From positions 604,774-668,773 of the forward strand of contig CAVNZM010000001.1 in assembly GCA_963693365.1 (NCBI GenBank): 64,000 nt of DNA. Reading direction: 5' to 3'. The position numbers were made by a program, and so were the translations under genes. The DNA comes from Amoebidium appalachense. Lineage: Eukaryota > Protista > Ichthyosporea. Under the pieces are notes generated by a model. The model searched no databases and had not been told where the DNA came from. It was given only the letters and a program-made list of their open reading frames with translations. Within the stretch, counting starts at the first letter, position 1. Each line of letters begins with the position of its first letter. This document shows, piece after piece, positions 14,178 to 56,170 of the stretch.

Positions 14178-17100
14178 ATGTCGACCGAGAGCATTGACCA
14201 TGTAGCCATTCAGTTCGAGAAGGCAGTCACCATCACCGACAGCCTCGAGCTGCCAAAATGTAGGTGCATACGTGGGGGCCGTGTGGTGTAGAGTGGGGGG
14301 ATTACAAGCCTTATTCCAAGAGACTTTAAGCTGACGTATACAGCATTGACCAAGCTTAGACAGGAGGTATCACACAGTTAAGCCACATGAGAATTGCCCA
14401 AAAGCAAGCAAATTTGGCTCGTCCCGCTGTTCTGACGATTACCTCTAACACACTCGCCTCACAGGCAAAAATGGCAAGTCACTGAGTCTGGTGCGTGAAA
14501 GCAGCAGCAGCAGTGTGAGGAGTTTGGATCTCAGTGAGGTGGGGTGTAAGTGTTTGATGACAAATAGAATGTTGTGCGAGTGTGGATTTGCCCGTGGCAC
14601 AAAAAGATATTTCGTTGGTTTTGACACTGGACGAAAAAGCGAGCATCTCTTTGGTTCATTTGTTTTCGATACCTGCCCAAGCTTCCGCCGGTTACTCTAG
14701 AATGATTTTGGAGCTAGATACTGTTGTGTAAGGATCGTCAGTTGGGTGGGAAGTTGGGTCGTATAACAGAGCAATAAAAGCAGCAGAGGTACTTAATATG
14801 GATGGGGCAGTTTATTTTATTTTATTTGTTTGTTTGTTTTTTTTTCATTTTTTTTTTGTTGGGGGGGAGGGGGGGGGGGGATAAGAAAGCAGCCGTTCAA
14901 CAAATTATTGCTTGTGCAATAATCTGATGTGTGTTTGTGTGTTTCTCTTTGTTTCACCCAACCACCAACATCACCATTGCCGCCGCCACCAACCATAGAA
15001 ACCACCACCACCATTTATAAAGGACCTCAGCAGCTTAGCCGGTCTGATGTTTTGACACAAAACGCACAGCCCGATGCTGAAGAAACAGCCGAGGCACGGG
15101 AGGCAGCGGCGGCGCAAGTGATTGCAGAGTTTCAGTGCATGTTGGAGGAACGCACAAAGTTCCATCTAGGCTACCCATACAACCTGGATTTCGACTATGG
15201 TGCCCTGGGCCCCCTCCAGAAATACTCCATCAACAACCTGGGCGACCCTTTTGTTGAGAGCAACTACGGCGTTCACTCACGACAGTTCGAGGTTAGGCTT
15301 CCATCACAGTAGCAAAACGCTGCTAATGGTTCATGTGACGGTGCGCCTGCATTCTTTTTACCTGTACCCTCATATAATGCAACTGGCTGTGCACCTGTAT
15401 ACATTCCACCTCTACCTCGTATCATCATTTATTTGCATGGAAAAACACATTAGATATGATCATTCTAACCTACAAGGAGATGATTTGCAAAGTGCACAAT
15501 GTCATGCAAGAGTCGTATTCTTACGTCAAAACAAATCTGCTGCGTGCTAACACTGGGGGGCAGGTTGGGGTGTTGCATTGGTTTGCCCGACTGTGGGAGA
15601 TTGAGCTGGACGACTATTGGGGCTACATAACAAACTGTGGCACCGAGGGCAACCTGCACGGCATTCTGGTTGGCCGAGAGGTGCTGGCCGATGGTGTGCT
15701 CTATGCCTCGCGTGAGACGCACTACTCCGGTGGGTCTATGTGTTTTGTGTGTTATGAGATCGTGGTGAATGCATTACATGAATTTTGTTCAAACCACTCT
15801 GCTTATATAACATTGAATCCTTCGCACCACTTGAGGCCGGCACGTTGTTCTAAGGGATTGGGGCCGTGTCACTGTATGCATTTTCTCTTTTGCCTATGTC
15901 TGTCTTTGTCTGATACCCCTGTATCAGACAAAGACAAAGTTATTTGTGTTCTAACGTGAGCATGAAATTGATAGGAGCCAACAAAAAGTGAACGTAAAAA
16001 ATAAGCAAATTTATCTAATATCTCTGAAGCAAAATTATCTAATGACTTTGTGTCAAGTTTCATAACTTTCCTTCAGCATTCGAGAGGTCCAGCCAACGAC
16101 GATTTTCACGTTTTTTTTATATTCAATATTCAGTGCAGTACATAACTTCACTCAAGCATTGCAGGGGTTCAGTGAAGACGATTTATTTCCTATCAAGCTG
16201 AATCCTCAACAGAGTCCGTAAATCCTGGCTGGGCAGACCGGTTAAGTCAGTTAGAATCAGTGTGAACAGGTGTAAGCACAGCTGTTTTTCTTCAAGAACA
16301 AAATGCACGAAGCGCCCGGGCTCCATCACCATCATAGGCCAACGCAATAGTTTATGCACGAGAGTGCTTCTGCAGGGCCGACTGGAAGGGATGGGAGTGG
16401 GGGGTGGGGGGGAGGGGAGGGGGGTTGGGAAGAGGTACACTACGGCTGGAGTGTGGTCCGGGGAGGAGGGGGGAGGGGGAGGGGGGATAGGCTATTTTGT
16501 GCATGCTTTGTAAGTAGATTGAACCGATTACCCATACATACTCTCGTAAAAGAAGATGCTGACGTTGGGGGTGGGGGGCAGTATTTAAAGCCGGCATGAT
16601 GTACCGTATGCCCCTGGTCAAGGTGGCCACCCAGCTTACCGGAGAGATAGACCTGGAAGACTTCCGCACACAGCTTCTGGCCAACGCGGGGCGGCCAGCC
16701 ATTGTCAATGTCAACATTGGCACGACGGTCAAGGGTGCCGTTGACGACCTAGACGGTGTCATTGCTACACTCAAAGCCTGTGGTTACAGCGAGGACCGCT
16801 TCTTCATCCATTGCGACGGCGCGCTTTTCGGGCTGATGCTTCCCTTTGTGAAGCAGGCAGCTCAGGTCAATTTCAAGAAGCCCATCGGGTCAGTCTCAGT
16901 TTCAGGCCACATGCCCCACGCCCTGCGGCGTCGTCATTACGCGACAGTGCCACATCAAGAAGCTGTCCCAGGAGATCGAGTACCTCAACAGCAAGGACGC
17001 AACCATTATGGGTAGCCGTAACGGCCATGCACCACTGTACATGTGGTACACGCTCAATCGCAAGGGCTAAAGCGGTACAAGCCCCAATGCGCACAGGCAT

Positions 17101-18422
17101 GCACACACAGAAACAAACAAACACGGACACATGCATGCACACCTATACAAGCCTGATACAAGCGTAGCTTGACGTAATAGCCCACACGTCCCTGGACATG
17201 TGGTAGACCCCCCCCCCCCCCCCCCCTATCCCCCGCCCGCTCCTTTCCCTACAGCCCCCCACACAGTATCTTTCCTAAGCAGCATTAATCGACCGATTTT
17301 CAATCAATAGGGTTCACTGCTGGGCCTTGCCATCGCACCACCAGCTATCTCGTTTCTCACCTTTAGCTTACTTTAGTTCTTGGTGAAGTTAACTGTGTGC
17401 CCTGCAGGCATCCGCAAGGACGTGCAGAAGTGCATCCGTAACTCGCATCTGCTGAAAGACCTGCTCGCTGATGCCGGCATCGGGTAGGTGTCACCTGGAA
17501 GGTGTGATTTGGATGTCACATGTGGAAGCAAATAAGTAAATTCTGTAGGATGGTTTCTATTTAAACCTTGAAGGGTAATCTAATTATGTAGTGAACCAAA
17601 CACCTCTGAATACACAATAGAATACATGCATCTGAATTCACACATTTGAGCTCAAATATATACGAATTTACACAGCTGAACGTATTCAAAGGACGAATAG
17701 GGGAGGCATACTGGGTTCGTGTGGTTCTTGAGATGCCAGTGGAATGCTGATGCGGGTGGCTGCAGGGTGATGCTTAACGAACTCAGCAACACATTAGTCT
17801 TTGAGCGCCCCGAGGAGACGGCCTTTGTACGCAAGTGGCAGCTAGCCTGCGAGGTGGGTTATGGTTGGTGCATTGAGTGTGCAAACATTGAGTACTGCTG
17901 CATGAGTGGTTCCTTGCTGCCTGCATATTATGGCATGGTTGGTCCCTGGTGTGAACCACATCGTTGCTGCAATGGTGTGAACCGCTACTCCATGTTTGGT
18001 GTGTAACATAGCATATGTTATATGCTAGTGAGGCCTGCAATGCTCCTTGGTTATATACATTGTATGCTAATATAATAGTGGGGCCTGGTTATAGGTGTTG
18101 TATGCCAGTGAGGCATGTAATGCTTTTGGGTTAGTGAAGTTTGCAAGTGCAAAGGACACAATGAAGCAATATATATCAGGACAGGCTTTCTACACGAAGC
18201 TCGTTTGTTTGGCGTAGCTATTGACAGGCAGTGCAGGGGCCCATAGCTCACGCTGTGGTAATGCCTAACGTTAACCCCGACAAGCTGGAGCTGTTTGTAC
18301 AAGACTACGTGGAATCACGCGATCGTGTGGCTGCCAAAAACGGCTATGCACAGCCCCACAACATCTGCGTTGCCTCCCACATCGGCAAGGTGCACTGTCG
18401 CTGCACAAGCTGCAGAACATAA
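14178..18422 (+). pseudogene. SDC: Serine decarboxylase-like (group II PLP decarboxylase, SDC/HDC clade), disabled. Exons 14178-14259, 14465-14538, 15070-15291, 15564-15729, 16582-17074, 17408-17483, 17766-17853, 18237-18422
   Basis: Motifs [108 protein letters not shown]. At 16908-16912 SVSGH joins out of frame to [11 protein letters not shown] (the K-F-x-G codons are missing), and there is an in-frame TAA at 17068. Confidence 0.9.
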
Positions 18423-19203
18423 GAATGCCTGTGGTTGGCCTCTGCTGGGGATTACCGTGCCTAGGCATTTGTTCTTTGTGTAAGTATAAGACCTTGTCTT
18501 GCTTGTCGGCAAATTGATGTGTTTTTATGGAACCCTGTAGTGCTCATTGGTTACTAGTGGTTAGGTCACTTGTGTGCGTACGGAACTTTCTAGGGCTGGT
18601 CGGTGTAGATTTGATGGTATGGAATCTTGTAGTGCTGTTGCTTATTGGTGGTTGGAGTGGGATGCCATACAGTGATTGCTCCACCTCCAACAATGTGTAT
18701 GGAATAAGTCGATCAGGAAGTTAAACCACGCTGGCAGTCCATACTAGTTTAACGGCAAGTATCTTTTCCATTAGCAACTTGTTATTAAATTGGTGAAGGT
18801 AAATTCAATGGGTGTGATGTAACGGGTGTGGCATCTATGTGAATATATGTAGGCCTGGGCGTGGCCGCCATCAGATGCAACTAGAGTCTACAAGTCCAGA
18901 CACCGAGAAGCTGGAATCTGAAAGCTGGGTAATAGAAGTCTGCAGCGTCATTCGCAACCCCCCCCCCCCCCCCCCTCCCCCCTCCTCCTCCCCCTGTTGT
19001 TTTGTACGGGTCTAAGGGAGCACAGTGCACAGAGGTGTCATGTAAACACGACCAACACAATAAAGAGAGGGCAATCGGAGGTGCTCACGACACATGAAAG
19101 ATATCAAACAACAACTGATCCTTTATTGTGCTCTCGGTTCTTTTTTGTACTTGCAACTTATCATCTTATCTCAACTAAAGGGGGAGAACCAATCGGTTCT
19201 ATC

Positions 19204-21715
<2,512 letters not shown>

Positions 21716-24290: not shown

Positions 24291-25164
24291 ATAAAAACTA
24301 CAACTGGAGTCCCCCCAACCCCGGGGTTCATGATCAGAATCAAGAACACACCCTCAGTGCTGTCTGATTACTATACCATATAACACAGGCCTGCGCGGCT
24401 ACAGGACCACAGCGAAGTCGATTCAGTTTATAAATTCCTACTAAATTTGGTTGTTTTATACACCTTTCTCAACATCCACGACGTGAGACCAAAAGAGTAC
24501 CGACCACATTATACGTAGGTATTCAGCAGACCTGCTGATCATGGTATTGTATCTGTTAAATTATAATAAAGAGGAATGCTGCAGATGCTGTGTGCATACT
24601 AATAATAATAATGATGACTGTCTAATAACATCCAGTCCAAAGAATTGCTAACGGCAGTATTTCGCCGGCACCTGTATATGTGCCATATGCATCGCGCAGG
24701 CAGACGTGTGCACGTGTATGTGCACAACCAATATGATGACTGTACACCTGATGTATGTCCATGCATGTACATGTGTGTGCACGCCGCATGATCATGATGC
24801 CACAGTGCAACAAACCCGTCCATAATGATGCCACGCTGCAGTATTGTTCATGTGGCACATGTAGTATTGGGCACTATGCTCGCTCGCCCACGTGACTGGC
24901 AATGATTCAGGTTGCGCGCATGCAAGGGATTCTTGACTTCTATTCTAGGCATGTGTCACGATATAAGATGAAAATAAAAATCCTAAATCCAGATAATGGT
25001 AAATTGTCAAAAATACGGAAAAATGTCAAAAATCTGGAAAAATGTCAAAAATCTGGAAAAATGTCATTTTTTTAATTTTTAGCAGATCATAATTGGAATT
25101 TTATGGACTTAATATTAATCTTAACTGTAAGCTAGGAATCCAGTACTATGTTCCTAGTACTCTA

Positions 25165-26847
25165 AGAATAGGAAAGAATAATTGAAAATAAAGGCTTTGG
25201 AAGAAGACCAAGGCTCTAACGAGAAGCGCCGTATCAGGACACGAAAGGTCAGCGAATATAAGTATCAAGCAATTGGTAATAAAGCTGGATCGCGCAAAGG
25301 AAACGTAGTGCTAGTCCCGTTGACAGGACTTGGCCCCAGAACTAATGAGGAACGAAACAACGGAGTATCATTAGAGACAGAAATCAACAGAGATCCCGAA
25401 AGTAGTGGCGAACGAAATCGGATTATCCCACGTTTAATGGATAGGTTCTGAGGAATCCATAGAGGGTAACTAGTCTAGACCCTGCATTCAGATCCCTAAT
25501 CCAGTCCATCGGGGTGTTCATTAATTTACACCCCTGATTGATGACGTACGATGAGTAGGTTGCGTGATGAGCGTTACTGAAGAGGAGGACCTCCTTCAAA
25601 GGATAAGAGTAGTTAGAGACCGATAGTGAACAAAGTAGCGTGAGCGAAAGGATGAAAGAGAACCCAATCGGGGATTGAAATAGAACTGAAATTCAAAGCT
25701 TAAGAGCAGTAGGAGTTCCATAAGGATGACTACGTACCTTTTGCATAATGGGTCTACGAGTATATAGTGTTAGCGAGGTTAATTCGAGAGATGTAGCCGA
25801 AGCGAAAGCGATTCAGAGTTAGCATTATATGACCCGAAACGGGATGATCTAAGCGTGTTCAAGTGGATACTTGAGTAATATCGAGTTGAAGGCTGAACCA
25901 GTTTACGTGGCAATGTAATTGGATGAAATGCGCTTAGGGGTGAAAGGCTAATCAAATTCCGTAATAGCTGGTTTTCCGCGAAACATATTGAAGTATGACG
26001 GTTCCGGGATTGTAATAAATGAAATCCCCAATATTCATCATGAAAGGTAAAGCACTGCAAGGATTCGAAAGACGTTCTGTAATAGAATGTAGGGTGGAGT
26101 GAAATCCATACCTAATCTAAGCAAACTCAGAATTAGCATGATGGAGAGAACTAGTCGGACTGTAAGCGATAAGGTTTATAGTCAAGAGGGAAAGAGCCCT
26201 GATCAAAAGCTAAGGTCTCAAAGTGGAATTAAGTGTGAAAGGAAGTTTCAATGCGGAGATAACAAGAAAGTAGGCTTGGAAACAGCCATCTTTGAAAGAA
26301 AACGTAACAGTTCATTGAATAATTATGCAATAGCCTAGTTCTAAACAAGCTTAGTTATTGCTAACGCATTGAAGCACCGAAGATTTCGGAGGCTAAATTC
26401 CAGCACCGAAGCTTTGAACTTAGAGATATTATGCTCTGAGTGGTAGCGGAAGAATCTGAATTTATTGAATCGATCTGAAAAGATCATAGTCAATTACTTT
26501 CATCGCAAGATAAATCTTTGACTCGTGTCTTTACTGACACACTTTGGAATTCAGATGACAAAATGTAGACATGAGTAAACAAAAGTCAGTGGATTGGAAG
26601 TCTGATACGTTGAGATTAGATGGAAGATCTGTGACACTGACTCGCCGAAAGTCCTAGGTTTTCTGCGTCCAGATAGACTGCGCAGAGTGCAACAGCTCCT
26701 AAGAGAAAAGCGAAAGCTGTACTCGATGGATTAACTAGAATGACAAGAGAATCGCAATGGCATTTAGGGTATCACTACTCTAATGACAATGGTTTCGTAT
26801 TCAGGAAACAATTCTAGTATATAGACTGTACTTAATCTGACACCAGG
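25165..26847 (+). rRNA. rnl: Mitochondrial large-subunit rRNA, 5' half (domains I-III), truncated; nuclear copy
   Basis: 23S-like landmarks in the correct order: AGAAATCAACAGAGATCCCGAAAGTAGTGGCGAACGAA, GACCGATAGTGAAC, CGTACCTTTTGCATAATGGGTC, GACCCGAAAC, GGGGTGAAAGGCTAATCAAA..ATAGCTGGTTTTCCGCGAAA, GTAGGCTTGGAAACAGCCA, CTGACACCAGG. The 5' end is approximate. Confidence 0.9.
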
Positions 26848-27589
26848 CCCCCTCCTCCCTTCTTCTATTCTAGGCTTCTGTCACGATATAAGATGGAATT
26901 TCCAATCCTAAATACAGAAAATGGCAAATTTCCGGAAAATCATCAAAATCTGGAAAATTGTCAAAAATCTGGAAAATGTCAAATTTCGGGAGTGACGACC
27001 TTGAGATTTGTAATTATAGCAGATCATATTTAGGATTTTATAAGAATCTTAAATTGTAATTAACCTATTTATAAGGGAAAATAAGGGTAAATAATTTAAA
27101 AATCCTAAATACAGAAAATGGTAAAATCGATTTTTCGGAGTGACGATCTTGGAAATTGTAATTTTAGTATGCCGTATTTTGGAATTTATAAGAATCTTAA
27201 AGAGGTATTAACTGATTTATAAGGTAAAATAAGGGGAAATAGTTTAAGATTAGGGGTACAGAAGATATCGAAATGTCAATTTTCGGGAGTGACGATCTGG
27301 AAAATTGTAATTTTAGCTGAGCAGGAATTGGGTACCTACGGAAGCCTATGGAACTTTCGCGGTGCTCCAAATTATGGATTTTATATGATTCTTAAGGCAA
27401 AAAAGAAGAAAGTAAGGAAGTACTATGTTATAGTACTTAATTCTTAGGAAATTTTAAAAGTAGGGGCGAGTTGCAAGTCCTAGAGCATAAGTTTCTTAGC
27501 GATAAGGCTCTTTAGAGACTCTCACAATCAACTTGTCGATCGTAGGGATAAAAGCATAAGACTTTTATCTTAGTGAGAAAGCTCGACTG

Positions 27590-28200
27590 AGACTCAACCA
27601 GAAGGGAGTCGAGAGTATAATTGGGTTAACTACCAGAGGAGAATCAAAAGTCTGATTGGGGGGAATTACGAGAGGCGAGAGTATGATTGGGTGACCTACC
27701 TGAGGCGAGTCGAAAGTCTGATTGGGGGAAACTACCAGAGGCGAGTCAAGGGTAGGTAAATTGGCATTTTTATTACTTTACCTAATCAAAATCGGGGATT
27801 TAACCGATCAGGGACTGGGTACCTACGGAAGCCTATGGAACTTTCGCGGTGCCCCCCCCCCAATTTATGGACTTAATACTATTTATTAGAGCAGGTAATT
27901 CCTAAGGGTTAATAAGGTCGTTGTCGTTCCTTTTTATCTCTTTATACTATTGAGTATCTACAATAGTATACTCTATTAAATATTTATAATCTATTTTTTT
28001 TTGTGCGTACCTTGATTCTTATTGAAAGAGGTATCCTTTAGTTTGTACCTTGGTTCTTATTATTTGCATTAGAGTACTAGACGAGTGGTGGCTCAAGCGA
28101 GACTCTCACAATAAATACCAGAGGCGAGTCGAAAGTCTGATTGGCGGAATTACCAGAGGGGAGTCGAGAGTATGATGGGATGAATTACGAGAGGCGGCTC
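27590..28200. repeat. Two clusters of ~34-bp GC-richer repeats (ACCAGAGGCGAGTCGAAAGTCTGATTGG type)
   Basis: Units visible at 27590-27752 and 28113-28200. Confidence 0.75.
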
Positions 28201-28531
28201 AAGCGAGACTCTCACGACGAGTTGCAAGTTCTAGACGAGCTTGTTGTCGTATGAGGACAAGAGCATAAGACTATTTTCTTAGGGAGGAGGCTCTCCAAGA
28301 TTTAGAATGCCACAATGATTGAATTAGTTGAAAAGAATAAAGATGGCATCATTATTATCAGTATCAGTATTAATATGTTTATCTCAACTCGTCCTAGAAA
28401 TATATATAATGATGTATATTAAAGCAGGTGCCTTTGTAGGATTATTAATAACAAATTTTTCCCTATCAATTTATATCGAAGTGATTGTACCAGATACGGT
28501 ACTCGGAGACCATCATATTAAAAATATGATC

Positions 28532-28925
28532 ATGACAGCACATGTATTATCGAATCCCATATCAATTAGTTTTACCAAGTCCATGGCCAATTTACGCCTC
28601 TTTAGCAGCATTAGTATTCACAGTAAGTACTGTATGTTGATTTCATAATTATAAAAATGGAGATATAATGATGATTATCGATTTAGAACCACTTAGTTCC
28701 GAGGAGGAAATTCCTTGAATTGTTTGAGTTAGAAATTTCTCTTGAAGAGAAGAAGTAATGATTCCTTTCAGTGTATCATAAGCTTTATTATTCTTTTTAA
28801 ATTTATGAGTTTACTTTAATAGCTGCCTTCCTCCTCGGTTGAATTAGGATTTAGTATCTCAAATTACTATATTCTATTGAAATTAAGGTATTAAAATCCA
28901 ATACCTCTTAAATACTGCTATTCTT
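28532..28925 (+). pseudogene. cox3: cox3 fragments (degenerate, frameshifted)
   Basis: MTAH../PYQLVLPSPWPIYASLAALVFTVSTVC(TGA=W)FHNY at 28557-28687; LFFLNL(W)VYFNSCL../SVELG at ~28786-28850; IKVL..IPLLNTAIL at ~28880-28925. Confidence 0.8.
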
Positions 28926-28926
28926 A

Positions 28927-29236
28927 ACTCCATCATCACTTCTATTAGGGCCATCAGCATTAGTAAAACAAGGTGCGGTAAGTGGTACTAACATAAATGG
29001 TATACTTTAAATTTAGCCATATGTTGAGATGTAACAATGGACAATCAGCAGAAAACCAAAATAAATTATATATTTATTAGTAGGATTCTCAGAAACTACA
29101 GGCTAAACTAACTATTTCATTATTATATAGAAACGTTTGGATAAAATATTCTAACTGCGTATAATATTGTATGCTGTTATCCATTCTTATTCTAATTATA
29201 AACTCATTCTGGAGACTTAGTTAATTTAGCTATTTC
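28927..29236 (+). pseudogene. cox1: cox1 fragments
   Basis: TPSSLLLGPSALVKQGAVSG at 28927-28990 resembles PPSLILLLxSALVEQGAGTGW. THSGDLVNLAI at ~29201-29236 resembles HSGxSVDLAIFS. Confidence 0.65.
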
Positions 29237-30690
29237 AACACCCATAGATTTTAAGCCTGATACGTTGAAGTACAATAAAAAATCTGTAATGTTGATTAGC
29301 CGAAAACCCTAAGTTTTCTACTTCCAGACAGCCTACGCTGAATGTAACTTTATCATTTAGAGTGTCTAAAGAGCCTTATCGCTAAGAAACGTTCTTATGC
29401 TCGGATAAATTCTACTTACTCGTACAAGGTGAATTGGTAATCTGATGATTACAAGAGTCTCTCTTGAGCCTTATCGCTAAGAGAAGAGTCTTATACTCTT
29501 GTCCTCATATGACGACAAACTTGTCTTATATTTACAATCTGATAGCAGTGAATAGACGTTAATGTAATAAAGTGTTGATGTAATGTTCTTTTTGGAACTT
29601 GATATAAAGAATATCTTAATTTTGGTATAGGCTAAAACAACCTAAAACTTTAAGTACTTTTAATATTAATAACCTTAAATCTACAACAACTCTGGACACA
29701 AGTAGCAAGCCTTCTTTAATTTTGCATTTTATGTGTATTCACTAGAATATTATTATTATCAACTAAAGGAATATTATTTTTAGTTAGTATTTTACTTCCA
29801 TTAGTTATATTTGCAGGATCAAAATTTAATTAAGCTCTCTTTGTTATTTAAACTTATGTATTCATATTCTTTAGCATGATTACTTTTTATAAGTAATAAA
29901 ATTTTCTCTCCCTCCCTAGTTAAGTAGTTATTTAATACTAACTCTTGTTATTACATAATTGGAGATTTACATCATGATGTAACGATGCTTGAATTATCTG
30001 GGATACCAAATTCATAAGTTAAATTAACTATGTAGTAATATAGCTAGGTATAAAAGATGGCAACTTCTAAATTCAAAATATGTAATGCATAGTTAGGTTT
30101 CCTTGAGAAATTTGTTCTTATGAGTTCGTACTAGAGTCTCAGTATAGTCACTGGTTTAAGGGCACTCGCATTAAAGTAGTTATAACTTGAAAGCTCTTTC
30201 AGTAGCTGATTGTGGGATGGGAGAACAAGATTAATAGATCATTGTATCAGATTGAATAAACGAGTAGTATTAAGGATGGGGATTAGGTTTAAGAGTTCAA
30301 ACTTCATATGAGATACGAGATGATGATTGAATAGTTAATAATGGATTACTAAAAAGTATACCCTTTAGAGGTTTAAGCTACGCCTTGTATGAGAAGAATA
30401 CTTAACCTTTTTAATGTTATAAAAGTCTAGATAAAGACCTTGGTTATAGGGGAGGGAGGGCCTATACTTGTCTTGCGATTTACTTTTACATAGTGAGTAA
30501 ATAGTTAGGAATGTAAAATAAATCAGCGGATGTTTACAATCCATAACAGAGGTTTTTAAGCAAGGAGATATGGGAGACTTCGGGCTATCTATATTGTTGA
30601 AAAAGCTGAGGTAGCAGATGAATAGTAATAGCTGGATTAGATAACTAAAGCAGAAAAGCATATGGAACAGAGAATAATAACGATTATAGT

Positions 30691-31170
30691 TTGGGAGGTA
30701 AACGTGTTAAGGCTTCGGTAAAGGAGTTTAGGGTTAATTCTTTGAGAAAGATATTGCTTGCGGGTCTTATTAAACTCGGAGAACTTATCAAAGCAAATGC
30801 TAATAACGAATTGCTTATTATTACTAAATTACGTATCATTATTAGTAACATGGACATACTTATGACCGCATATTCTGTTAATAAGTCAAAACCTGGTAAC
30901 TTTACTCCAGGATACAATAGAGGTCTTTTAAATGATATTACCCAAAGAGATTTGAGCCCTTAGCCAGAGCCATTGGGTTTAGAACTTTCAGCTTTATACT
31001 TTCACGTTATGTTAAAATATCAAAGCCTAAAATAAGATTACATCTCAAGGCATTATCTCTCCTGGAAACAAAATTATTTTAAAAACTATGATAATTGTGT
31101 TTGAAATCCTCTTAGAGTCCACATTCTTACTACAGTTCCATGATTTCCATATAGAGAGAGACTGTTATAT
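30691..31170 (+). pseudogene. Degenerate group II intron reverse transcriptase/maturase N-terminus
   Basis: AYSVNKSKPGNFTPG, then across frameshifts FSF..SRYVKISKP and GIISPGNKII..MIIVFEILLESTF..FHDF. This matches RT-0/1/2 of mitochondrial group II intron proteins (IKSKPGNMTPG..RRVxIPK..LGIxSPRDKIVQ..EPxF..SHGF). Confidence 0.7.
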
Positions 31171-31978
31171 TGCATTGAAAAGCTAACCCTGTGTACACTA
31201 AACTAGTTCTAATAAAAATTCAGACTAATGATGAAAAGGTTAAGCGTATTCTCATAGCTAAATTGCATACTAAAGGAATTAGAGGTGGCTTAGTCACTAA
31301 CTCAAACGTTAAAAGAAGCAATTTGTAATATATGCAGATAACATTCTTAGCGTTTTCATGGATATTAAAGAAGCTCTTTAAGCTTTCTAGGTTAAAGAAC
31401 TTAAGTCTCCATTATTAGACGAATAATTTCCCATCACCTCCCCACGCTAAGGATAAGGAGGCGATGTTTCTTATACCTATGGTAACATTCATACGATACA
31501 AAAAGCAAATTATAAAAGCAATCTACGTTAAGAACAAACGTGGAGTAGTAAGTTTAATAAAATGCACACACCTGTTAGTTCTTAGCATTAAACTCGTAAT
31601 GAAATTGTAGGAAAAAGATTATTGTAATAAAGGTAAAACTAGAATCTCCACTAGCTTAAAGAAGTTTTTGTGCACTTGGAAGAAACTTTGTCGTTAGACA
31701 GAAATTTATACTTTTGTTTACAAGACAGATGATTTACCATTAAGTTATACTAACTAAAACTGTTCATCCAAGAGCTTGAATTAATAACACTTATATTGGA
31801 GAGACCCTAACAGAGTAACTCTGAATATTCAAAGTATTAAACTAATTTAGTTATAAAGATAATATAAATCTATAAAAGATTCTAAGTATTGAAAAAGTTT
31901 TACTGTAATAATAATACAACTTTAGTAGAAAAAGTCAAACTTTCATAGGAAGGGTCCAACTAGGTTAGGAGAGATAAT

Positions 31979-32174
31979 ACACACTTAGGAAAGATCATGC
32001 ACACTTAGTAAAGATCGTGCACACTTAAGAAAGATATTACGCACTTAGAACAAAATCATGTGCATTTAGGAGAGATTCTGCACACTTAGGAAAGATCATG
32101 CGCACTTAAGAAAGATCTTGCGCACTTAGGAGAGATTTTGCACACTTAGAAAAGATCCTGTGCACCTGGAAAGG
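31979..32174. repeat. ~20-bp tandem repeat (CACTTAGGAAAGATCATGCA) x ~9
   Basis: Directly visible; units are contiguous with no unique spacers. Confidence 0.9.
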
Positions 32175-32477
32175 TACCTTGTGATTTAATAGGAGTCTAT
32201 ACTCTTATCTTAGTATATATACAAATAATATTTATTTCAATTATCAGTCGCATACTTTACCTATTAAGCTAAATACCTTGAAAATTAGAAGACATTTAAG
32301 ATTTGAAAATGCAAATTTTTGGTAGGAAGACAAATCTCATAACTAAAATATAAGACTATCTGTCTTAATAATAAAGTACTAAACAAATGGTGGTTCTATT
32401 GTAACTTAATACGAGCATAGGAATTTAAGATTACTTTAACAATCATAACTTGAACCCATAATATCTTAATAGAAAGT

Positions 32478-32941
32478 AACTCTGTACGTCTTAAATACCC
32501 TATCTATTAAGCTACAGGGATAATCAATATTAAAAGGAGTTACATTAACATGCTTCACCAATTAAGTTTGATGCTTGTAACATATCTCGAATAAGAATTG
32601 AATTTATAACATTTACATTGGAAGAGAAAGTAGAATTACCGTCGAAACTCTGTACGTCTCAAATATCCTATCTATTGAGCTACAGGGATAATCAATATTA
32701 AAAGAAGTTACATTAACATGCTTCACCAATTAAATTTGATGCTTGTAACATATCTCAAATAAGAATTGAATTTATAACATTTACATTGGAAAAGAAAGTA
32801 GAATTACCGTGGAAACTCTGTACGTCTCAAATACCCTATCTATTGAGCTACAGGGGTAATCAATATTAAAAGGAGTTACATTAACATGCTTCACCAAATA
32901 AGTTTGATGCTTGTGACATATCTCGAATAAGAATTAAATTT
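32478..32941. repeat. 168-bp tandem repeat x ~2.8
   Basis: AACTCTGTACGTCT at 32478, 32646 and 32814. Confidence 0.9.
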
Positions 32942-34668
32942 CTACTCTACTAAATTACAAAAATGGTAATTCACCCTAATCGGCTAAAATTACAAGAATG
33001 ACAATTCACCCTGGTTGGCTAAAGTTACAACGATGGCAATTCACCCTGATCGGGATTTAGGAATTGGATTTTCATCTTATATACTAATAGAAACTAGGTG
33101 TAAGAGTAGAGTACAAGTGGGTACCTACGGGAATCGACGGAACTTTCGCGGTGCTTCAACCTACGAATTAGACTTAGGAGTCTAATGGACTAATACGTCT
33201 CGACTCAAAAAGTACTTGATTTACTATTAAAGATTATTATTAATTCCATAAAGTCCAATTCTTGATCTGCTAAATTTCCGATTACCAAATTCGTTCCTTC
33301 TGGATCAAGATTTTTAACAATTTACCATTATCTGTAAATAGGATCTTAATTATCATCTTATATACTGAAGCTTGGAGCCCCGCGAAAGTTCCGTCGATTT
33401 CCGTAGGTACCGAATGATTTGATGCTACTTCTAACATTGAATAGTTTAATTCAACTTCTAACATTGAATAGTTTAATTCTACTCCTTTCTTCCATTTAAG
33501 ATCTATAATTTGTTAAGCCTCCGATTATCAGAATCGTCACGTCTGAATCGAGATTTTCAAAATCGGCTTCTAACCCTATTCCATTTTCCTACTATTGAAG
33601 GATTTAATTCAACTCCTAGGGTATTAATAACCTAATACTCTATTCTTTCATTGTCTTTAATATTCTTATTAATTGCCTAAACTGGAGCACCGCGAAAGTT
33701 CCGTAGATTTCCGTAGGTACCAAATTATAATCTGTTTAAACTCCAATGGCAGATGCGTCACTTCTGTATTCTGAATTTTAAACTAAATTACCCTTATTTA
33801 CCCTTATAAATATGTTAATAACAATTTAAGATTTCTATTGCATCCAAAAATCCAAGACGGCCACTCGGCAATCCAAGACGGCCACTCGGAAATCATAAAA
33901 TTACCCCTCCCTAGTTACATGCCTAGAATAAGAGTAGAGAGAGATATCTAATTATCATACACCCACCCTATATCTCAAAATACCCCTATATACAAAGCTT
34001 CAAGTAAGAAGAAGAGAGGAGGGGGGCGAGATGAAATAACTAGACTGGGCCTGGCCGGCACCCATTATGCGGGATTAGCAGCACACGGGGGTGGCGTTTC
34101 TCGTGCTTTGCTTATACGCACAAAGTATCAGGACCAAAACTTGCCGATCACTGTGTGGTCGTGTGTGGAAAATGGGAAAAGATGATGCGCTCATGAGAAA
34201 TGGGCTGGTGCGAAAACCGGGTTGTGTGTGCTACAATATAAAAAATGATATGGCTGTTGCAAAAAAAAAAAAAAAGGCCTCATTGCGGGGCGACGTCCGA
34301 ATAGTAAGCAAATGCATCCTCGTGTATCCGTAGTTATCCGTGGACTGCTGTGACCATCCGTCCGTAAAAATGAGCTATCGTAGCATGCTAGCAGAGCGCG
34401 CGTGTGGAAGCGTGTTTACCTGGTTACCCCCGAGGGAGACCTTCCTTTTCTGCTACCATGCGACATCGAAATGTGATGGGAACATGAATTTGAACACGGA
34501 TGAAAGTCGGATGGGGGAGGGATGGTCACAGCTTTCATTGACAAGAAATAAGTTTTGGACAAGGAAAAGACTGAGGACGCCAGGTCCCGGAAGCCCCATT
34601 TACATCGTGATGTTTATTGATCTGGGGGGCTTCCGTGTCTGGGGTGACTCGATGTATATCTACGTCAC

Positions 34669-35240
34669 AATTTTCCAATCAGAGAGACGAAAACTATGAG
34701 GGTAACTAAATCGATCGAAATGCCTGTCGACACATAGAAGATAAAACGCAATCCTCTAATGAAAGTAATCTTCTAATAAAAGCACGGAAACATTTAACAA
34801 AATGAAACCACTTATGTATCTATTAGTTCACATCATATATCTATACATGTTCTTAACATAGCACGTCTAAATATAAGTATTCCTAATAGTTGGGGAACAT
34901 AGAACAATGCTGCGTCGTGAGAAAAGAAGGGAAAGGAATGAGGATAGAAATGAATGGAATGGGAAAGGAATCGAATAGAATTAATGAGGAATGTAGTTAC
35001 TATATTTGGGAAAATACAACGAGATCTGATTGGACGACATATTTAGACATTGACACAAACGACAATACGTGTGCGCGGGCTAAATATCTCGATGTGTACA
35101 CAGATCTAAGATATCTGTGCACACGGAAACAGAAAGGAAAGAAAGAAAGGAAAAGGGAAAAGGAAACAAACTACAACAAACTAATAAACATATATTAAAC
35201 TCAACTTCTAAGTCTTGCCGATAATCATGGGAAGATGACA
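34669..35240 (-). mobile_element. Copia LTR family A, truncated diverged copy
   Basis: Reverse complement of 40770-41280; terminus ..GGGAAGATGACA at 35240. Confidence 0.85.
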
Positions 35241-38439: not shown

Positions 38440-41400
38440 TGTAAAATTATATAAGTATTTGGGATGGAAGCAGAGACACAGCGGTGCAGTGTGAATACAT
38501 CAGAAACACACAACAACAAAACACGGAGCAGTGTACACAACAGACATCAATGTTTAGACACAACTGAACTCAATTTATTTTGATCTTCGAATAAATACCT
38601 GAAATTCCTTTAAGTCTAATCCATACATGATTTCCGACCAGTTGGAAATCAGATCTGTCTCTAATAGAAACCAATTACTAAGAACCAATTGCTTTCAGAG
38701 AGATCTGGTACGCGGAGACGTACACGATAGGACACAGACACTAGTTAAGATCAACTCGTGTCATCATCAAGGAAGTTCTAACCTATGACATACTGCAAAG
38801 ACTCAGACATGTCACACTTATCCTTGATGATTGGTTAAAGCCCGGCAACACATGAAAACTAAAGTCAATTGAAGTCTAATCACACATGTCAATCTAAGTG
38901 TAGCCTAAGTGTGTTACCGTCCAATCAACACATATTAAGTAACACAAATCTACCCAACATATATTAGTAGAAAAGAAATACGATTATACACATGAAGACA
39001 AAGAGAGAAAGAAAAGAAAATAAGGAAGGAGAAAGAGGAAGGAAAAGAGAGCACAGATCAACAAACAAGATAGCAATGTCATAACTATAACCAGAGATAT
39101 TTATGTACACACGAACATGTACACGTCTCCCCCTGAGTGGGTGGATCCGTGTACACACATGTAAATAATCTAATTGATATTACAATACACGATTAAAGCC
39201 GATACAAGACGATTACAAGTATACAAGCATATCGGAGATCGATGCTACACTTTACATAATAGGAGTGTGGCATTTACACTAAGCATATGAACTGAAACAT
39301 AACACAAACTGAGAAGATCTTACCATATGTAAATACTACGTATTACAACATCCCCACTTAAGACTTTGAAGTTTGTGTTATCATATCCCCACTAAACTAG
39401 TGAAATCTCCCCACTTGAGAACAGAAACGGAAAAAAAAATTTAAGTGTGTACTTTTCCGGGGGGGGGGGGGGGGGGGGGGGGGAAGGGGGCGGGGGAAAG
39501 GGGGGGGGGGGGGAAGGGGGGGGGGGGGGAAAGGGGGGTGGGGGGAGGGGGGGGGGGGGAACCGGGGCAAAAACAACGAAAATGTATAACGTTTATAGTC
39601 GGGGTGTGACTAACTGGGTTTGAAACCAGTGAAAGATAGAGTAGAATCGCGGTACAGGTCAAACCATATATAAAAACCCTAAGTGGGCATACCCACAAAG
39701 GCAATATACATATGAAATAATGATGGTGGTAAATTAATTAGTAATCATTCCAGCCGGGAGGCAGTGTTGATGCATCTGCTGTCCAGGGCCCCGGCCGTAG
39801 TAGAAAACCACACGTGAAGTAAGACGGTTCAATCTTCAATGTCCGGCACACAAAGTCGTGCACGATGGGTGACGTGACTCGGGCCAGGGAGGGGCTTGGT
39901 GAGGATGAAGGCCAAGTTGTGAGCTGACTCGACGTAGTGGACAACAACATCCCCACTGGCAATGTAGTCTTTGGTGTTATGGTACCGGACGGCAATGTGT
40001 TTGGTACGGTGCTTGATGCCGGTGGAGTTGACGATGGCAATGGTCGACTGGTTGTCACAGTACACCGGAGTCGGAGCAAGCATGGGGCAGACGAGTACCT
40101 TGAAGAGGTCACGGACCCAAGCAACCTCCTGGGTGCCGGCATTGAGAGCAATCAGCTCAGCTTCGGTGGTGCTGGTGGCCGTGATGGGCTGGAGCTTGGA
40201 GTACCAGATGATGGGCATACCAGCAAACTCGATGATGTAACCGGTGGTAGACTTCTTGCTGTCAGCACAACCAGCAAAGTCAGCATCCGTGTAGCACTCG
40301 AGGATGGGGGGCTTGGTGGCCGAGTACTTGTAGTCAATGCCAAGGTCAATGGTACCGAGCAGGTACCAGGCCACACGACGGAGAAGGTCCCAGTGAGTTA
40401 TGCCGGGGTTGGTGCTGAACCGACCAAAGAAGCCGATGGCATAGGCAATGTCGGGACGTGTGCACCGTGCCACCCAGAGAAGACGGCCGAGTAACTCACG
40501 GTAGGGCAAGGTGAACGGTTGGGGGGGGCAGTCAGCCAGGGAGACGGTGGTGCCTGCAGGGATGGGGGTAGACTTGGACTTGGCATCGGTGAGGTTGAAG
40601 TCGTGGATGATATCCATGATGTAACACCTCTGGTGCATGTGTAGGTGATGGGGATCGGAGTGATTAAAATCAACACCGAGCATACGGTCAAATGGACTCA
40701 TACGACAGCTGGCCATCTTGCTGATGTGGGCAGCCAGGTCACTGGCAGCAGTAGAACCCCGGGTGTTGGTGTCATCTTCACTTGATTCTCAGCAAGACTT
40801 AGAAGTTGAGTTTTGTATTTGTTTATTAGTTTGTTGTAGTTTGTTTCCTTTTCCATCTTCCTTTCCTTTCTGTTTCCGTGTACACCGATATCTTAGATCT
40901 GTATACGTATCGACATACTTAGATGGCGCACACGTATTGTCGTTTGTGTCAAATCTATATATGTCATCCAATTAAATCTCGCTTGTATTTTCCCAAATAT
41001 AGTAACTTACATTCCTTTCCCGTTCCTTTCTCACGACGTAGCATTGTGCTATGTTCTCCAACTATTAGGAATAATTATATTTAGACGTGTTATGATAAGA
41101 ACATGTATAAATGTATGTTGTGAACTAATAGTTACATAAGTGGTTTAATTTTGTTAAATGTTTCCGTGCTTTTATTAGAAGTTTCTTTCATTAGAGGATT
41201 GTATTCTATTATCTATGTGTCGACAGACATTTTGATCGATATATTTTACACTCATAGTTTTCGTCTTTCTGATTGGAAAATAGAGTTTTCGTTCTTTTGA
41301 TTGGTTTATCGTTTTCACATTCCCAAGTATAAAAGGGACTTCATCTTGGAATAAATATCAAGCAGTCGTATTCATTTCCTATGGTTCCAGAAATCGTTCC

Positions 41401-43572
41401 ACCTCTCGGGTTGTGTTTCTCCCGTGTGTCTCTGTGTTGTGTATAACATAACACCCATCTGTGCTCTCTGCTTCTCCGTTTACCCACACAAAACAACAGT
41501 TGGTGATGGTGGAGTCGTCGACGTAGTTACCAGCCCGGACCACATCGTTGTTGGGGAAGAACCGGAGGTAGATGCACGGGTCAGTCTTAGTACGGGTCAG
41601 GCCATGGGCAAGAAGAATACCGTCGAGGAAGTCGTACCAGGCCTTGGAGGCTTGCTTGAGGCCATACAGGGCTTTCTTGAGTCTCCAGACCTTGCCATGG
41701 TGGCCATGGTGATGGGTGGTTGTGTCATGTAGATGGTCTCGGTGAGTGGGCTGTTGAGAAAGGCCGTAGACACGTCGAGTTGATGGATATCATGACCTTC
41801 AACAACTGCCAGAGCTAGGATAGCACGGAGAGCAGCCGGACGGATGACAGGGCTCTCAATCAACTCATAGTCAACACCGTATTGCTGACTGAAGCCTTGA
41901 GCAACACCACGGGCCTTGATCTTGGTGTCACCAGCCGAGTTGAGAGTTTTCTCAGAGACAATCCACTTGAATCCGACGATGTTAGCACCAGGGGGAGGGT
42001 CAACGAGTTCAAAGATGTCTTTGTCGACGAAGGCTTGATACTCAGCAGTGAGGGCTGACTTGACCTGGTCACCATTGGGGCCGGAACACAGTTGACGGAC
42101 AAGTTTGGGTAGTTGGGCGAGGTTGATGGGAGGACCGGGGGGAACAGGCAGGGTGGTGGTGGCTTGAAGGCCAACCTTGCCTTGCAGACGGGCAGAACGA
42201 CGGGGTGCAGGAACCGGGCCCCCGGGGGGTGGAGACGGGGGGGGGGGAACTTGGAAGTTCGGAATTGCAGGGGGGGCAACCTCCGGGCTTGACGGGGCCG
42301 AGTGGAAGTTGTCGGGGGAGCCGGGTCGGATGGGGGTAACGTTGCCAGGGGCAGGATGAATGTCGGCAGGCTGGACGGGCACGGGAGCAGGGGGGCCGGT
42401 GGGGGGGGGGGGTGTCGGTGGAACGACAACGGCAGGAGGGGGGCCAGAGTACACCAGGCAAACGTCATCTTCAGTGTCAACGGTGGGGGGTGGGATGGTC
42501 GAGGTGGCAGTGGTGTCGGGGTTCGGGAGTGTTGATGGGATTTCGGACGGGAGATAAGCTGATTCGTCGAAAATCACATCACGGAAGAGACCGACACGAT
42601 GGGTGGTGGAGTTGAAGATCCGGTGGCAGTGTGATTGAAGATCATAGCCACAAATATACATGCCGAGTTTGACGGTGGGGGCCAGCTTGTTCCGTTTAGA
42701 GGCTGGCACATGAGTGTAGGCAGGGCAACCAAACACTTTGAGCTCGGAGATGTCGGGCTTGACACCATAGAAAACTTCGAATGGAGTACGACCATTGGCA
42801 GCCGTGGACGGGGTTACGTTGACGATGTAGGCAGCATGTTGGAGGGCCTCAGCCCACAGTTTGGGGGACAGAGACTGATCTCGGACTTGATGGAGGAGGC
42901 AACGAACAATCTCTTGGAGGAACCGCATACGACGTTCAACATAGCCGTTCAGTTGAGGGCAGTCCACCGGAGCATAACTGGCCTTGATGCCCTGGGAGAG
43001 GCAAAAAGCACGGGTAGCCTGGGAGGTGAACTCAGAGCCGGAGTCGAAGTGGTAGACACCAACTTTGGAGGGGGCATGGGTAGCAACGAGGTTGGTGTCG
43101 GAGCTGTGATAGTGTCCAGGGTGGTTGTACGGTCGGCCATCGGGTAGATCTTGACGAGTCCGGAGGCACGGCAGACAGTGACGAGAGCAACCTTGGAACC
43201 TCCGTACGATGTTGTGGTAGGCTCAAAAAAATCCCAATGCCATTCATGACCGGGGATGGTGGAGTGAGGACGGTCACCCTTGAACGGAGCCTCAAGTTGG
43301 TGGTTTTACCCATAATGCAGCCATGACAATCGGGAACATCACAGTCGAGGACAGACGAGGGGAGGCCAATAACAAGGTCGTGTTTCACCATGTCCTTGAT
43401 GCTGGTCATAGCACGGTGCCCCAGACGATGGTGCCAGATGGATGGGTTAACACTGGTAGTGGCAGCCAGAGCCACAGGACGAGTGGGTGGTTGAATGGTG
43501 TAGTCCTTGAAGTAATACAGACCGTTGTGTAGACGGAGGTTGACGCGGTGACGACCGGTGAGACGGTCGAAG
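38440..43572 (-). mobile_element. Ty1/copia element (3' LTR family B 38440-39350, PPT, RNase H, RT, integrase, GAG-pre-integrase), degenerate and 5'-interrupted
   Basis: WHHRLGH, PQLNGYVERR..WAEAL, KARGVAQGFSQQYGVDY..QLDVSTAFLN, YVDD near 41520, YTDADFAG..KSTTGY..TEAE..YCDNQS..KHIAVRYH. Domain order is INT-RT-RH. PPT AAGTGGGGA lies next to the LTR. Confidence 0.93.
40770..41498 (+). mobile_element. Solo LTR family A (729 bp) inserted in the copia RT
   Basis: TGT..ACA termini; 5-bp TSD GTTGG at 40765-40769 and 41499-41503. The RT frame is restored on removal. Confidence 0.93.
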
Positions 43573-46500
43573 TGTCATCTTCCCATGATTCTCAGCAAGA
43601 CTTAGAAGTTGAGTTTTGTATTTGTTTATTAGTTTGTTGTAGTTTGTTTCCTTTTCCTTCTTCCTTCCTTTCTTTCCTTTCTGTTTCCGTGTACACCGAT
43701 ATCTTAGATATGTGTACGTATCGACATACTTAGCTCGCGCACACGTATTGTCGTTTGTGTCAAAATCTATATATGTCATCCAATCAGATCTCGTTTGTAT
43801 TTTCCCAAATATAGTAACTTACATTCCTTTCTCATTCCTTGCTCACGACGTAGCATTGTGCTATGTTCTCCAACTATTAGGAATAATTATATTTAGACGT
43901 GTTATGATAAGAACATGTATAAATGTATGTTGTGAATTAATAGTTACATAAGTGGTTTCATTTTGTAAAATGTTTCCGTGCTTTTATTAGAAGTTTCTTT
44001 CATTAGAGGATTGCATTTTTGTTGTAATACGTAGTATTTACATATGGTAAGATCTTCTCAGTTTGTGTTATGTTTCAGTTCATATGCTTAGTGTAAATGC
44101 CACACTCCTATTATGTAAAGTGTAGCATCGATCTCCGATATGCTTGTATACTTGTAATCGTGTTGTATCGGCTTTAATCGTGTATTGTGATATCGATTAG
44201 AATATTTATTTGTGTGTACACGGATCCACCCACTCAGGGAGAGACGTGTACATGTTCGTGTGTACATAAATATCTCTGGTTATAGTTATGCTATTGCTAT
44301 CTTGTTTGTTGATCTGTGCTCTCTTTTCCTCCCTCTTTCTCCTTCCTTATTTTCTTTTCTTTCTCTCCTTGTCTTCATGTGCATAATCGTATTTCTTTTC
44401 TACTAATATATGTTAGGTAGATTTGTGTTACTTAATACGTGTTCATTGGACGGTAACACACTTAGGCTACACTTAGAATAGCATGTGTGTTTAGACTTCA
44501 TTAATTTACTTTAGTCTTCATGTGTTGCCGGGCTTTAACCAATCATCAAGGTTAAGTGTGATATGTCTGAGTCTTTGCAGTATGTCATAGGTTAGAACTT
44601 CCTTGATGATGACACGAGTTGATCTTAACTAGTGTCTGTGTCCTATCGTGTATGTCTCCGCGTACCGGATCTCTCTGAAAGCAATTGGTTCTTAGTGATT
44701 GGTTTCTATTAGAGATAGATCTGATTTCCGACTGGTCGGAAATCATGTATGGATTGGACTTAGAGGAATTTCAGGTATTTATTTGAAGATCAGAATAAAT
44801 TCAGTTCAGTCGTGTCTAAACAATGATGTCTGTTGTGTACACTGCTCCGATCGTTCCGTGTTTTGTTGTTGTGTGTGTCTGTGGTGTTTTGACACTGCAC
44901 CACTGTGTCTCTGCTTTCATCCCAAATACTTATATAATTTAATAGGTTATGGGCCCAGATGCACGCTCCCTACACACACCTAGACCTAGCGATCGTTAAA
45001 TTCCTGGTACACATCATAGCTGTGGTCAGCTCCTCATGCATCTTGGTGCTGAGGCTGTGTACATCCATCCCCGGCGTCCGTCCGTAACCGGTCCCACGTG
45101 ACTCCCCTTGACAAGATCTGACTCATCTTGACAAGAGCTTTTGTCACGCCTTGACACCCGTGACATCCTCGCAAGTTCAAATTCCAGCTTGCACTCCTTC
45201 CAGCTCCGTCCTGGTTTCTCTCCGTCACGCCAAACCGTCCTCCACCCTTGGTTCTGCAATCGCGCTCCAAGTTCCTTGACACTTCACCGACGTGGTCTCA
45301 ACCGCGCCGCCCTGTCTACCCAGGCCTGAGGATCCTGCATCGAAATCCCATTCCATCCGATTTCGAACCCGTCAACCCGCATTCGAATATAATTTCACAC
45401 CCCGTCTGCGTTCCAATCGACGATAATTTGACACCCCGTCTCGATCCGACTTGACCATCATCCATCAAGTCCATCTGAAGTATCCAAATTCGGTACTTCT
45501 TTCCAGTCTACCGTGTTCCACCCCGTCCAAGCCCTTTGTGCTTCCCTCCTCCCTAGGAGTCCCGACCCTGAGTCCCTCCAGAACCGTTTACCGTGTCCAA
45601 CCTGCTTCCTTCCAGGATTTCCAACCCTGTTTTCGGCCATGTCTGCCCTTACCGTGCCGTCACTGTCAATGGCCCCCTCACATTCCATTGATCTGCCCTG
45701 CATTCCGGTAGCAGTTTCCCCCCATCACGTGGCCAACCTCGTCGAGATCCCAGCTATCACCAGCTCTGCACGGGCAACAGTTACCCCTGCAGCTGTTTCC
45801 CCCCCATTACCACCCGACCCCGGCCAGCAAGACATGCGGCCAGGTCCAGTCGTTCCCATCCACGTTTCCAGCCAGCTTGCTGTGCTGCCTTCCCCCGTTT
45901 CCAAAGCCCCTGCATCCGACCCAGTTAACCTCCTCCGTCCGGAATTACCTGCACTTGACCCTGCCTCCGTCGTGCCTCATCCCAACCCAAATTCCGTGAA
46001 GACCTACCCCCCCTCCCTGTTCGGGCTTTCCCAGTCACCCCGAGCAGCAAGCACCCTCGACGCCCCCCTCAGCGAATTCCAAACTACGACAAGTCTACTC
46101 CTCCTTGGTCATCAATCACTCCACCGGTCGCCCCACCACGTGTGGCTACCCTCGACACACCGCATCCAAATGCCGTGACCCCCGTTGTCCTGTCTACCGT
46201 TTGCGTCCTCGATACCCCCCATCCCCTATCCTCCTCCCCCCCAGCCTGAGTGGGGATGTTGTCGTCAACTACGTCGAGTCTGCCAACAACTTGGCTGACA
46301 TCCTTACCAAGTCACTGCCGGGTCCCAGCCATGTCACTCACCGTGATCGACTCTGTGTGCCCGACCTTGTGCAGTGATCATCGTGTGGTCTTCTACTACA
46401 CCTGGGGCCCTGGACAGCAGCTTCCTCTACACTGCTTCCCAGTTGGAACGTCTACTACTACGATTCTGTATATGTATTTTTTTTTTTTGCCTTAAGTGGG

Positions 46501-51465: not shown

Positions 51466-51501
<36 letters not shown>

Positions 51502-55524: not shown

Positions 55525-55557
<33 letters not shown>

Positions 55558-56136
55558 GGGGGGGGGGTCACAGTGCATTAAGAATGAACCAATAAGGAAG
55601 AACAACAACATTAAACATGAATAAGCATGTTAAAAAAAGCAGCATGAGAAGACTTCGTCTTTGATTGGGGTGTGGTGTGTGTGTGTGTGGGGGGGGGGAG
55701 GGGGGGGGGGGGGGGGGGGGGGAATGGGCACAAACGTTTAGTGTCTTGAAGCTGCTGAGGCGGTTCTTGATGTAGGAGCCGTTGATGGGGGACATGCACA
55801 TGATGCGGTGAAGGGCGGAGTTGCCCCATGGGTTGCCCCTCACCGGATCGACGCTGTACATGTGGCCACAGGGATGGTTGTTGCACTCAACTTGAACCTC
55901 CACCAACCACCCCTCCCACGTCTTCTTGCGGCACCTAACCTGGTCTGCCAACTTGTCGGGGTCGGCGGCATTGACAGGGGCAACCTGGAACATCTGTGTT
56001 GGTGGGCATGGAGGCATTTGACAGTTTTTTGGAAGGGGGGGGGAGGGGGGAGGGGGGGGGATGGGAGGGGCTTTTGGTGTGTGTGTTTTTTTGTATGTGT
56101 GGGTGGGGAAGTGAGTGAGTGAGTGTGTGTGTGTGT

Positions 56137-56170
<34 letters not shown>

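Follow-up and report, generated by a model that had tools for sequence, protein, structure and literature searches.

A candidate nuclear insertion of two joined mitochondrial-type molecules in a likely Amoebidium genome

We analyzed a 64-kb stretch of contig CAVNZM010000001.1, assigned to Amoebidium appalachense (64,000 nucleotides, hereafter the window), which contains a block of AT-rich, mitochondrial-type DNA at positions 24937-34051. The block is composed of two pieces, A (24937-26846) and B (26847-34051), and in the assembly it is flanked by nuclear DNA, with a low-copy left flank, a repeat as right flank and an intron-bearing gene at 14166-18416. An earlier note on this DNA had placed a captured mitochondrial chromosome from 26848 onwards. 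That extent misses the 1.9-kb piece A, which carries part of a large-subunit (LSU) rRNA gene and to which the left end of B is joined; the left neighbor of B is therefore mitochondrial and not nuclear. We lean towards interpreting the block as a nuclear mitochondrial DNA segment (NUMT) of very recent origin.

Twenty of 24 public runs contain part of the window, and 15 of these contain at least half of it, in all cases as assembled contigs. We compared the contigs of six runs with the block and its flanks, using X1, X3, X6 and X7 for positions 24400-34700 and X1, X3, X8 and X11 for positions 24700-24985. The runs X17-X20 and X24, which hold small shares of the window, were left out. All contig results for 24400-34700 rest on 32 of about 25,000 records, and contig depth is used throughout as a rough measure and not as copy number.

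Content of the two mitochondrial-type pieces

Piece A opens with left subterminal modules like those of B (24937-25150, plus strand). The left ends of the two pieces share 76% identity over 182 nt, with A aligned to positions 26862-27041 of B (E 1e-28), and the tip motif and the outer terminal repeat are missing from A. The modules are followed by the 5' part of an LSU rRNA gene of mitochondrial type (25192-26846, plus strand; Rfam RF02541, E 6e-37 and 2e-117). The gene stops in its middle, at about position 1660 of the 2925 positions of the model, and the match is sustained up to the break (E 1.5e-13). Piece A represents the initial 57% or so of an LSU rRNA chromosome. A contig of X7 matches the LSU gene up to 26846 and then continues with 82 different letters, which identifies piece A as a broken molecule. 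The segment 26570-26846 had been considered as an intron, and this was rejected as Rfam assigns the region to LSU rRNA. Diverged partial LSU copies over 25385-26423 are also found among the contigs (X1 record 3, X3 records 10 and 11), with 16 to 26 differences and depths of 7 to 15. Such copies may stem from older NUMTs or from pseudogene scraps that other mitochondrial chromosomes carry.

Piece B is 7205 nt long. The mitochondrial type of its interior, already proposed in the earlier note, is confirmed by a GC content of 0.329 and by scraps of cox3, cox1 and LSU rRNA. These pseudogene scraps are all that it contains, and B is a chromosome without any intact gene. Its longest stop-free frame under translation table 4 has 113 aa, compared to a shuffle median of 119 aa. 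None of the six read-through frames of 27850-32052 matches any Pfam family, and ARAGORN detected no tRNA; Rfam gave one weak tRNA match, at 32222-32278 (E 0.33), which we disregarded. At 28412-28691, on the plus strand, the N-terminal part of cox1 (residues 18-63 of the PDB cox1, E 7.6e-4) is fused to the N-terminal part of cox3, which lies in another frame (Pfam COX3 positions 2-44, E 7.3e-6). A full HMMER search with this region returned 74 matches at E <= 1e-3, the best with 55% identity (56% at most by another count). Since none of these matches carries an organism name, and since their identity is this low, the mitochondrial pieces do not indicate the species. Word-index homologue searches returned nothing for the cox3 scrap or for a frame of 104 aa at 30649. 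A degenerate copy of an LSU rRNA segment lies at 29247-29348 (plus strand), with 73% identity to 26592-26693 (E 1e-9). The unique core of B (28649-32550) is covered by single exact contigs and holds no open reading frame beyond chance length. It is followed, with some overlap, by internal tandem arrays at 31965-33053 on the plus strand (20-nt unit repeated 9.6 times, 168-nt unit 2.8 times, 35-nt unit 2.9 times). All pieces of LSU, cox1 and cox3 are on the plus strand and read away from the shared left-end module.

Two further resemblances within B are tentative. The segment 28820-29110 (plus strand) may include another cox1 scrap and a group I intron core; the tools gave no support, with no match in PDB and an Rfam Intron_gpI match only at E 1.3. 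The region at about 30650-31600 contains a possible remnant motif of a group II intron reverse transcriptase, which the tools did not confirm, as the searches returned no reverse transcriptase match there.

B carries mirrored tips, and this part of the earlier description stands. Of the 19 positions of 26848-26866, 18 agree with the reverse complement of 34007-34025, and the degenerate tip motif has only two matches in the whole window, whereas none of 100 shuffles yields one. Motif scans of metagenome contigs and viral contigs gave no match. When the left 600 nt are aligned to the reverse complement of the right 450 nt, the gapped score is 242, whereas 200 shuffles average 105 and do not exceed 136. 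The ungapped match of the tips ends about 20 nt inward, and within the window it does not extend outward. Of the inner mirrored modules described before, those at 26866 and 33921 and at 27070 and 33788 are present. The GGTACC motif is mirrored as well, but the partner of 27331 is found at 33716 instead of the proposed 33683, which is the first base of a 46-nt module.

The left tip motif (26847-26866, plus strand), as delimited by the motif scan and by the mirrored alignment, forms the inner part of a terminal inverted repeat. It is followed by a left subterminal repeat region (26866-27880, plus strand) with arrays of 18 nt, 148 nt and 35/66 nt and with GGTACC modules at 27331 and 27818. The right subterminal region (33100-34006, minus strand) carries the mirrored modules, and the right terminal repeat (34007-34051, minus strand) consists of the tip at 34007-34026 that had been noticed before and of 25 further nucleotides. 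The stretch 33900-34045 also resembles a decayed tandem, with a score that is reached by 15 of 1000 shuffles.

Free molecules and their ends

The core of B is identical to single contigs over 3902 nt in X1 and 3808 nt in X7, and over 2911, 810 and 534 nt in X6, with no differences in any of them. Further to the right, a single difference from a contig was found in the 506 nt of 32868-33373. We compared the depth of the core with that of the left nuclear flank in the same runs. In X1 the two are similar (82.6 and 92.8, respectively), whereas in X3 the summed depth of the core is 16,600 to 21,100, inflated by overlapping contigs, compared to 27.8 for the flank, and one exact contig of 98 nt alone reaches 2890. 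In X6 and X7 the core is present at depths of 7.9 and 31 without any cover of the flank. The ratio between core and flank thus swings from run to run, and it does so in step with the LSU piece, as expected for an organelle molecule and not for a fixed nuclear repeat. B exists as a free, high-copy, extrachromosomal molecule.

The ends of B are more abundant still. In X1 their summed contig depth is 1377 to 2825, many times the 82.6 of the core, and several end variants are seen, which indicates that the end regions are common to many molecules. The same applies to the left subterminal region of B, whose summed contig depth lies many times above that of the core, and which is therefore also shared with other molecules. 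B fits every testable feature of an Amoebidium-type mitochondrial chromosome, and the free molecule is probably physically linear and located in the mitochondria.

These data also bear on whether B could be a nuclear DNA transposon with terminal inverted repeats. Inverted ends and subterminal repeats in a transposon-rich window are what such an element would display. However, a comparison of five boundary pairs detected no target-site duplication between the flanks, B holds neither a frame beyond chance length nor a Pfam match, and the depth of its core relative to the flank ranges between runs from 0.9 to far above 50. In addition, the LSU rRNA piece carries the same end modules as B. We consider a transposon origin hardly credible.

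The contigs of the free molecules extend beyond the insert at both ends of B. The mirrored tips are therefore subterminal, and the claim that the chromosome was complete with both termini included is not upheld. At the left end, contigs of X3, X8 and X11 hold at least 10 to 12 letters outside the G-C-run, which are the reverse complement of 34027-34039. One of them (X8 record 24) is a B-type left end, with its inner 30 nt equal to positions 26896-26925 of the window, and it shows 10 letters of the terminal repeat where the window has LSU sequence. The left end of B is thus short by at least 10 nt, and by about 33 nt if the two ends are symmetric. At the right end, terminal-type sequence continues in the window up to 34045-34051, and the contigs reach 9 to 14 nt beyond. 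These loose ends lie behind 34051 in X1 (two contigs, with 14 more letters, the last five of which we take to be possibly adapter) and behind 34045 in X6. The left end of A is short by about 27 nt as seen in the contigs, and probably by about 48 nt, with loose ends before 24936/24937 in X3, X8 and X11. The length of the trim hence differs between ends. The insert had also been thought to preserve termini that are hard to sequence on free molecules, and it is instead the short-read contigs that reach further out.

Two loose ends of X6, one of 40 nt before 34007 and the other of 20 nt behind 34045, have the same visible letters. Assuming that they belong to the same contig, they fit one closed loop of 69 nt (k = 31), a hint of head-to-tail terminal repeats or of a tiny circle.

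Junctions and nuclear surroundings

The left nuclear flank (24400-24936) is low-copy and polymorphic. It is covered in X1 and X3, at the depths given above, and uncovered in X6, X7, X8 and X11, which makes these four runs uninformative on the junction. Within the flank, positions 24821-24884 occur in X3 in at least three variants that differ at 24851/24854 (depths 17.4, 15.3 and 11.4, total 44), the last of which is that of the window. This hints at more than two haplotypes or at a duplicated flank.

The first junction (J1, 24936/24937) joins the flank to piece A without filler and with an overlap of at most 1 nt: another allele matches the window up to 24936, and mitochondrial-type ends match from 24936/24937. 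The second junction (J2, 26846/26847) joins the broken LSU chromosome to the trimmed left end of B, also without filler. The LSU contig matches up to 26846, and in the B-type left end of X8 the G at 26847 is preceded by letters of the terminal repeat and not by LSU. There is consequently no unassigned base at J1 or J2. At the third junction (J3) the block meets a multi-copy nuclear repeat (34052-34700) with an A-run at 34262-34277. Its first 41 nt (34052-34092) are matched by no listed contig; further on, a contig of X1 covers 34093-34478 at a depth of 342, and the depth exceeds 1200 at 34519-34575. The segment 34052-34277, which ends in the A-run, is itself multi-copy, with a summed depth of about 2500 in X7, a run that we guess to be RNA, and it is possibly a transcribed retroposon. 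A contig of 745 nt in X1 (record 2, depth 30.9, one third of the 92.8 of the flank) joins about 705 nt of other DNA to an A-type tip (24936-24975). It may represent another insert that was joined at a tip, or a mitochondrial molecule with an internal fusion of ends.

We think it somewhat more probable than otherwise that the block is a very recent, haplotype-specific compound NUMT in which two molecules were linked by end-joining. Small linear mitochondrial chromosomes would have entered the nucleus, where nucleases would have removed tens of bases from their ends. Non-homologous end joining would then have linked the chromosomes to each other, head to tail, and into a double-strand break in a repeat-rich region. 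In the process the sequence found beyond 24936 in the other allele would have been lost or replaced, and the insert would be without coding function.

Several observations weigh against this scenario. Of the four runs compared at the junction, X1 and X3 cover the flank, and none of their listed contigs bridges J1. A contig of X3 (record 20, depth 21.5) tracks the flank as far as 24936, from where it runs on into 30 G-rich letters of the other allele, and it accounts for the whole depth of X3 at 24890-24929. These 30 letters, the only ones visible past 24936, are absent from the window (no match with up to three mismatches; best 19 of 30). The right flank is therefore not the direct continuation of the other allele, and a clean empty site linking both flanks was not found. 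The contigs of X1 and X3 also differ from the left flank of the window at six listed sites, so that they may represent another haplotype or strain. Finally, the insert is nearly identical to the free molecules, as a misassembly would also produce, and polishing with high-depth mitochondrial reads could have erased real differences.

The main alternative is an assembly chimera, produced by chimeric long reads or by a misjoin, in which free mitochondrial chromosomes became connected with one another and with the ends of two unrelated nuclear contigs, and no such allele is present in the cell. The unbridged J1, with another allele diverging at the very same base and continuing with letters that the window lacks, and the essential identity of the insert to free molecules agree with a chimera. 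All three joins are furthermore at or near the ends of molecules, the flank contig of X1 stops at 24917, and that of X3 ends exactly 30 nt past J1, which would fit a repeat boundary. Other signs of an imperfect consensus occur in the window, such as a one-nucleotide frameshift in the neighboring decarboxylase gene. A chimera, however, needs three separate chimeric joins, and it has to place no foreign letters at J1 and J2 and to trim the ends unequally, although the short-read contigs do hold the trimmed letters. The clean joins and the unequal trims thus favor a NUMT over chimeras of reads. The missing bridge is weak evidence, as Logan contigs drop minor, low-depth branches, probably above all those that lead into very deep nodes, and its absence is compatible with an insertion in one haplotype. 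The path of X3 towards J1 has a mean depth of 21.5, compared to 44 over the variants upstream, as if other branches had been lost. We regard a chimera as a possibility to be taken seriously, without favoring it.

A third scenario is an older, fixed NUMT that was overwritten by polishing with mitochondrial reads. The depth of the core in X1, near that of the flank, would agree with it, and polishing was used for published Amoebidium assemblies according to the available text of one report, which is not linked to this window (PMC11244446). It is contradicted by the other allele at J1 in X3, by a core far above the flank in the same run and by the presence of the core in X6 without cover of the flank. 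We judge it improbable.

We also considered a broader idea. Amoebidium might routinely patch nuclear breaks by end-first capture of whole linear mini-chromosomes, and its chromosome ends might be maintained by head-to-tail amplification of the outer unit of about 69 nt, in tandem arrays or as tiny circles. Natural ends account for three of the four donor ends in the block, and the 745-nt contig of X1 and the 69-nt loop of X6, each seen in a single contig, point in the same direction. We hold this to be speculative and rather doubtful.

The attribution of the host to Amoebidium made in the earlier note is likely, judging from the sequence of a nuclear gene in the window. This gene encodes a serine decarboxylase, contains introns and spans approximately 14166-18416. 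Its best single-domain match is the EukProt protein P009028 of Amoebidium parasiticum, with which it aligns in eight pieces at 63-88% identity. The alignment extends to N- and C-terminal parts, for which four proteins of plants and algae gave poorer alignments or none. The host is thus likely Amoebidium or a close relative. Given the moderate identity, the gene is likely a paralog of P009028. The decarboxylase is plant-like, as its other top matches are mostly plants and green algae, and its frameshift of 1 nt lies at 16910-16912 (an assembly error or a sign of a pseudogene).

Elsewhere in the window, putative Copia-like retrotransposon frames and a frame similar to a non-LTR reverse transcriptase were recognized by eye at 39738-43574, 47061-48653, 52286-53197 and 19179-20264. 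Positions 50920-51954 and 55133-56167 form a recent segmental duplication of about 1 kb or longer, and the segments 57305-58795, 60325-61373 and 62463-64000 hold tandem arrays, whose units measure 183, 188 and 359 nt.

Relation to known systems and implications

Burger et al. reportedly described in 2003 the multipartite linear mitochondrial DNA (mtDNA) of A. parasiticum, with chromosomes said to range from 0.3 to 8.3 kb and a terminal repeat of about 45 nt. Four papers portray Amoebidium mtDNA as divided among several hundred chromosomes, which are linear, end in inverted terminal repeats and carry oriented 5' and 3' sequences (PMC2518934; PMC2151934; PMC7027106; PMC8303319). The pieces described here resemble the mtDNA of A. 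parasiticum in their inverted terminal repeats, common subterminal sequences and gene fragments, and in the same left-end module that lies upstream of sense-strand genes on both A and B. Unlike in that system, two molecules are fused here and lie in a nuclear contig.

NUMTs are known to arise by end-joining and are frequently mosaics. The block shares with compound NUMTs formed by non-homologous end joining the blunt or 1-nt joins, the several donor pieces, the lack of a target-site duplication and a probable polymorphic presence, while its place in this class depends on support for the junctions. It differs from them in that only one of the four donor ends is an internal break, the other three being natural chromosome ends with short trims.

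Near-whole NUMTs from linear mitochondrial chromosomes are already known from Hydra magnipapillata, where they reach 7684 bp (of a linear chromosome of 8194 bp) and 7421 bp (of one of 7686 bp), with identities of up to 100% (PMC3716686). As in Hydra, near-whole linear chromosomes are found here within a nuclear assembly. Hydra, however, has two gene-rich chromosomes, whereas here the donor is a gene-less chromosome among hundreds and the insert is a fusion of two molecules. In the parts of the Hydra report that were consulted, the capture of termini is not discussed. For other species, the available text reports only short NUMTs in Chlamydomonas (PMC10030371) and none in Hydractinia (PMC11067881).

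In Amoebidium itself, polymorphic endogenizations of giant viruses are described in the text at hand (PMC11244446). The block, if truly inserted, would resemble them as a polymorphic insertion of foreign DNA into a genome of the same kind, and differs from them in that the donor is the organelle of the cell itself. The main text of that report, to which this count is limited, contains no occurrence of 'NUMT' or 'organell'. Our literature search, which excluded most subscription papers and all supplements, found no report on NUMTs or terminal sequences of Amoebidium.

Since the true termini are not preserved in the insert, the question of the end structure of these chromosomes is not solved by the window. 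Should the block prove to be a misjoin, long-read assemblies of the genus call for caution. In either case, it provides almost the full sequence of a large mitochondrial chromosome that lacks genes and is composed of scrambled scraps of cox1, cox3 and rRNA. If the insertion is real, it would be a clean snapshot of how an entire linear chromosome of an organelle is captured by end-joining in a species closely related to animals, and would offer a means to gauge how often the hundreds of small mitochondrial chromosomes of Amoebidium enter the nucleus.

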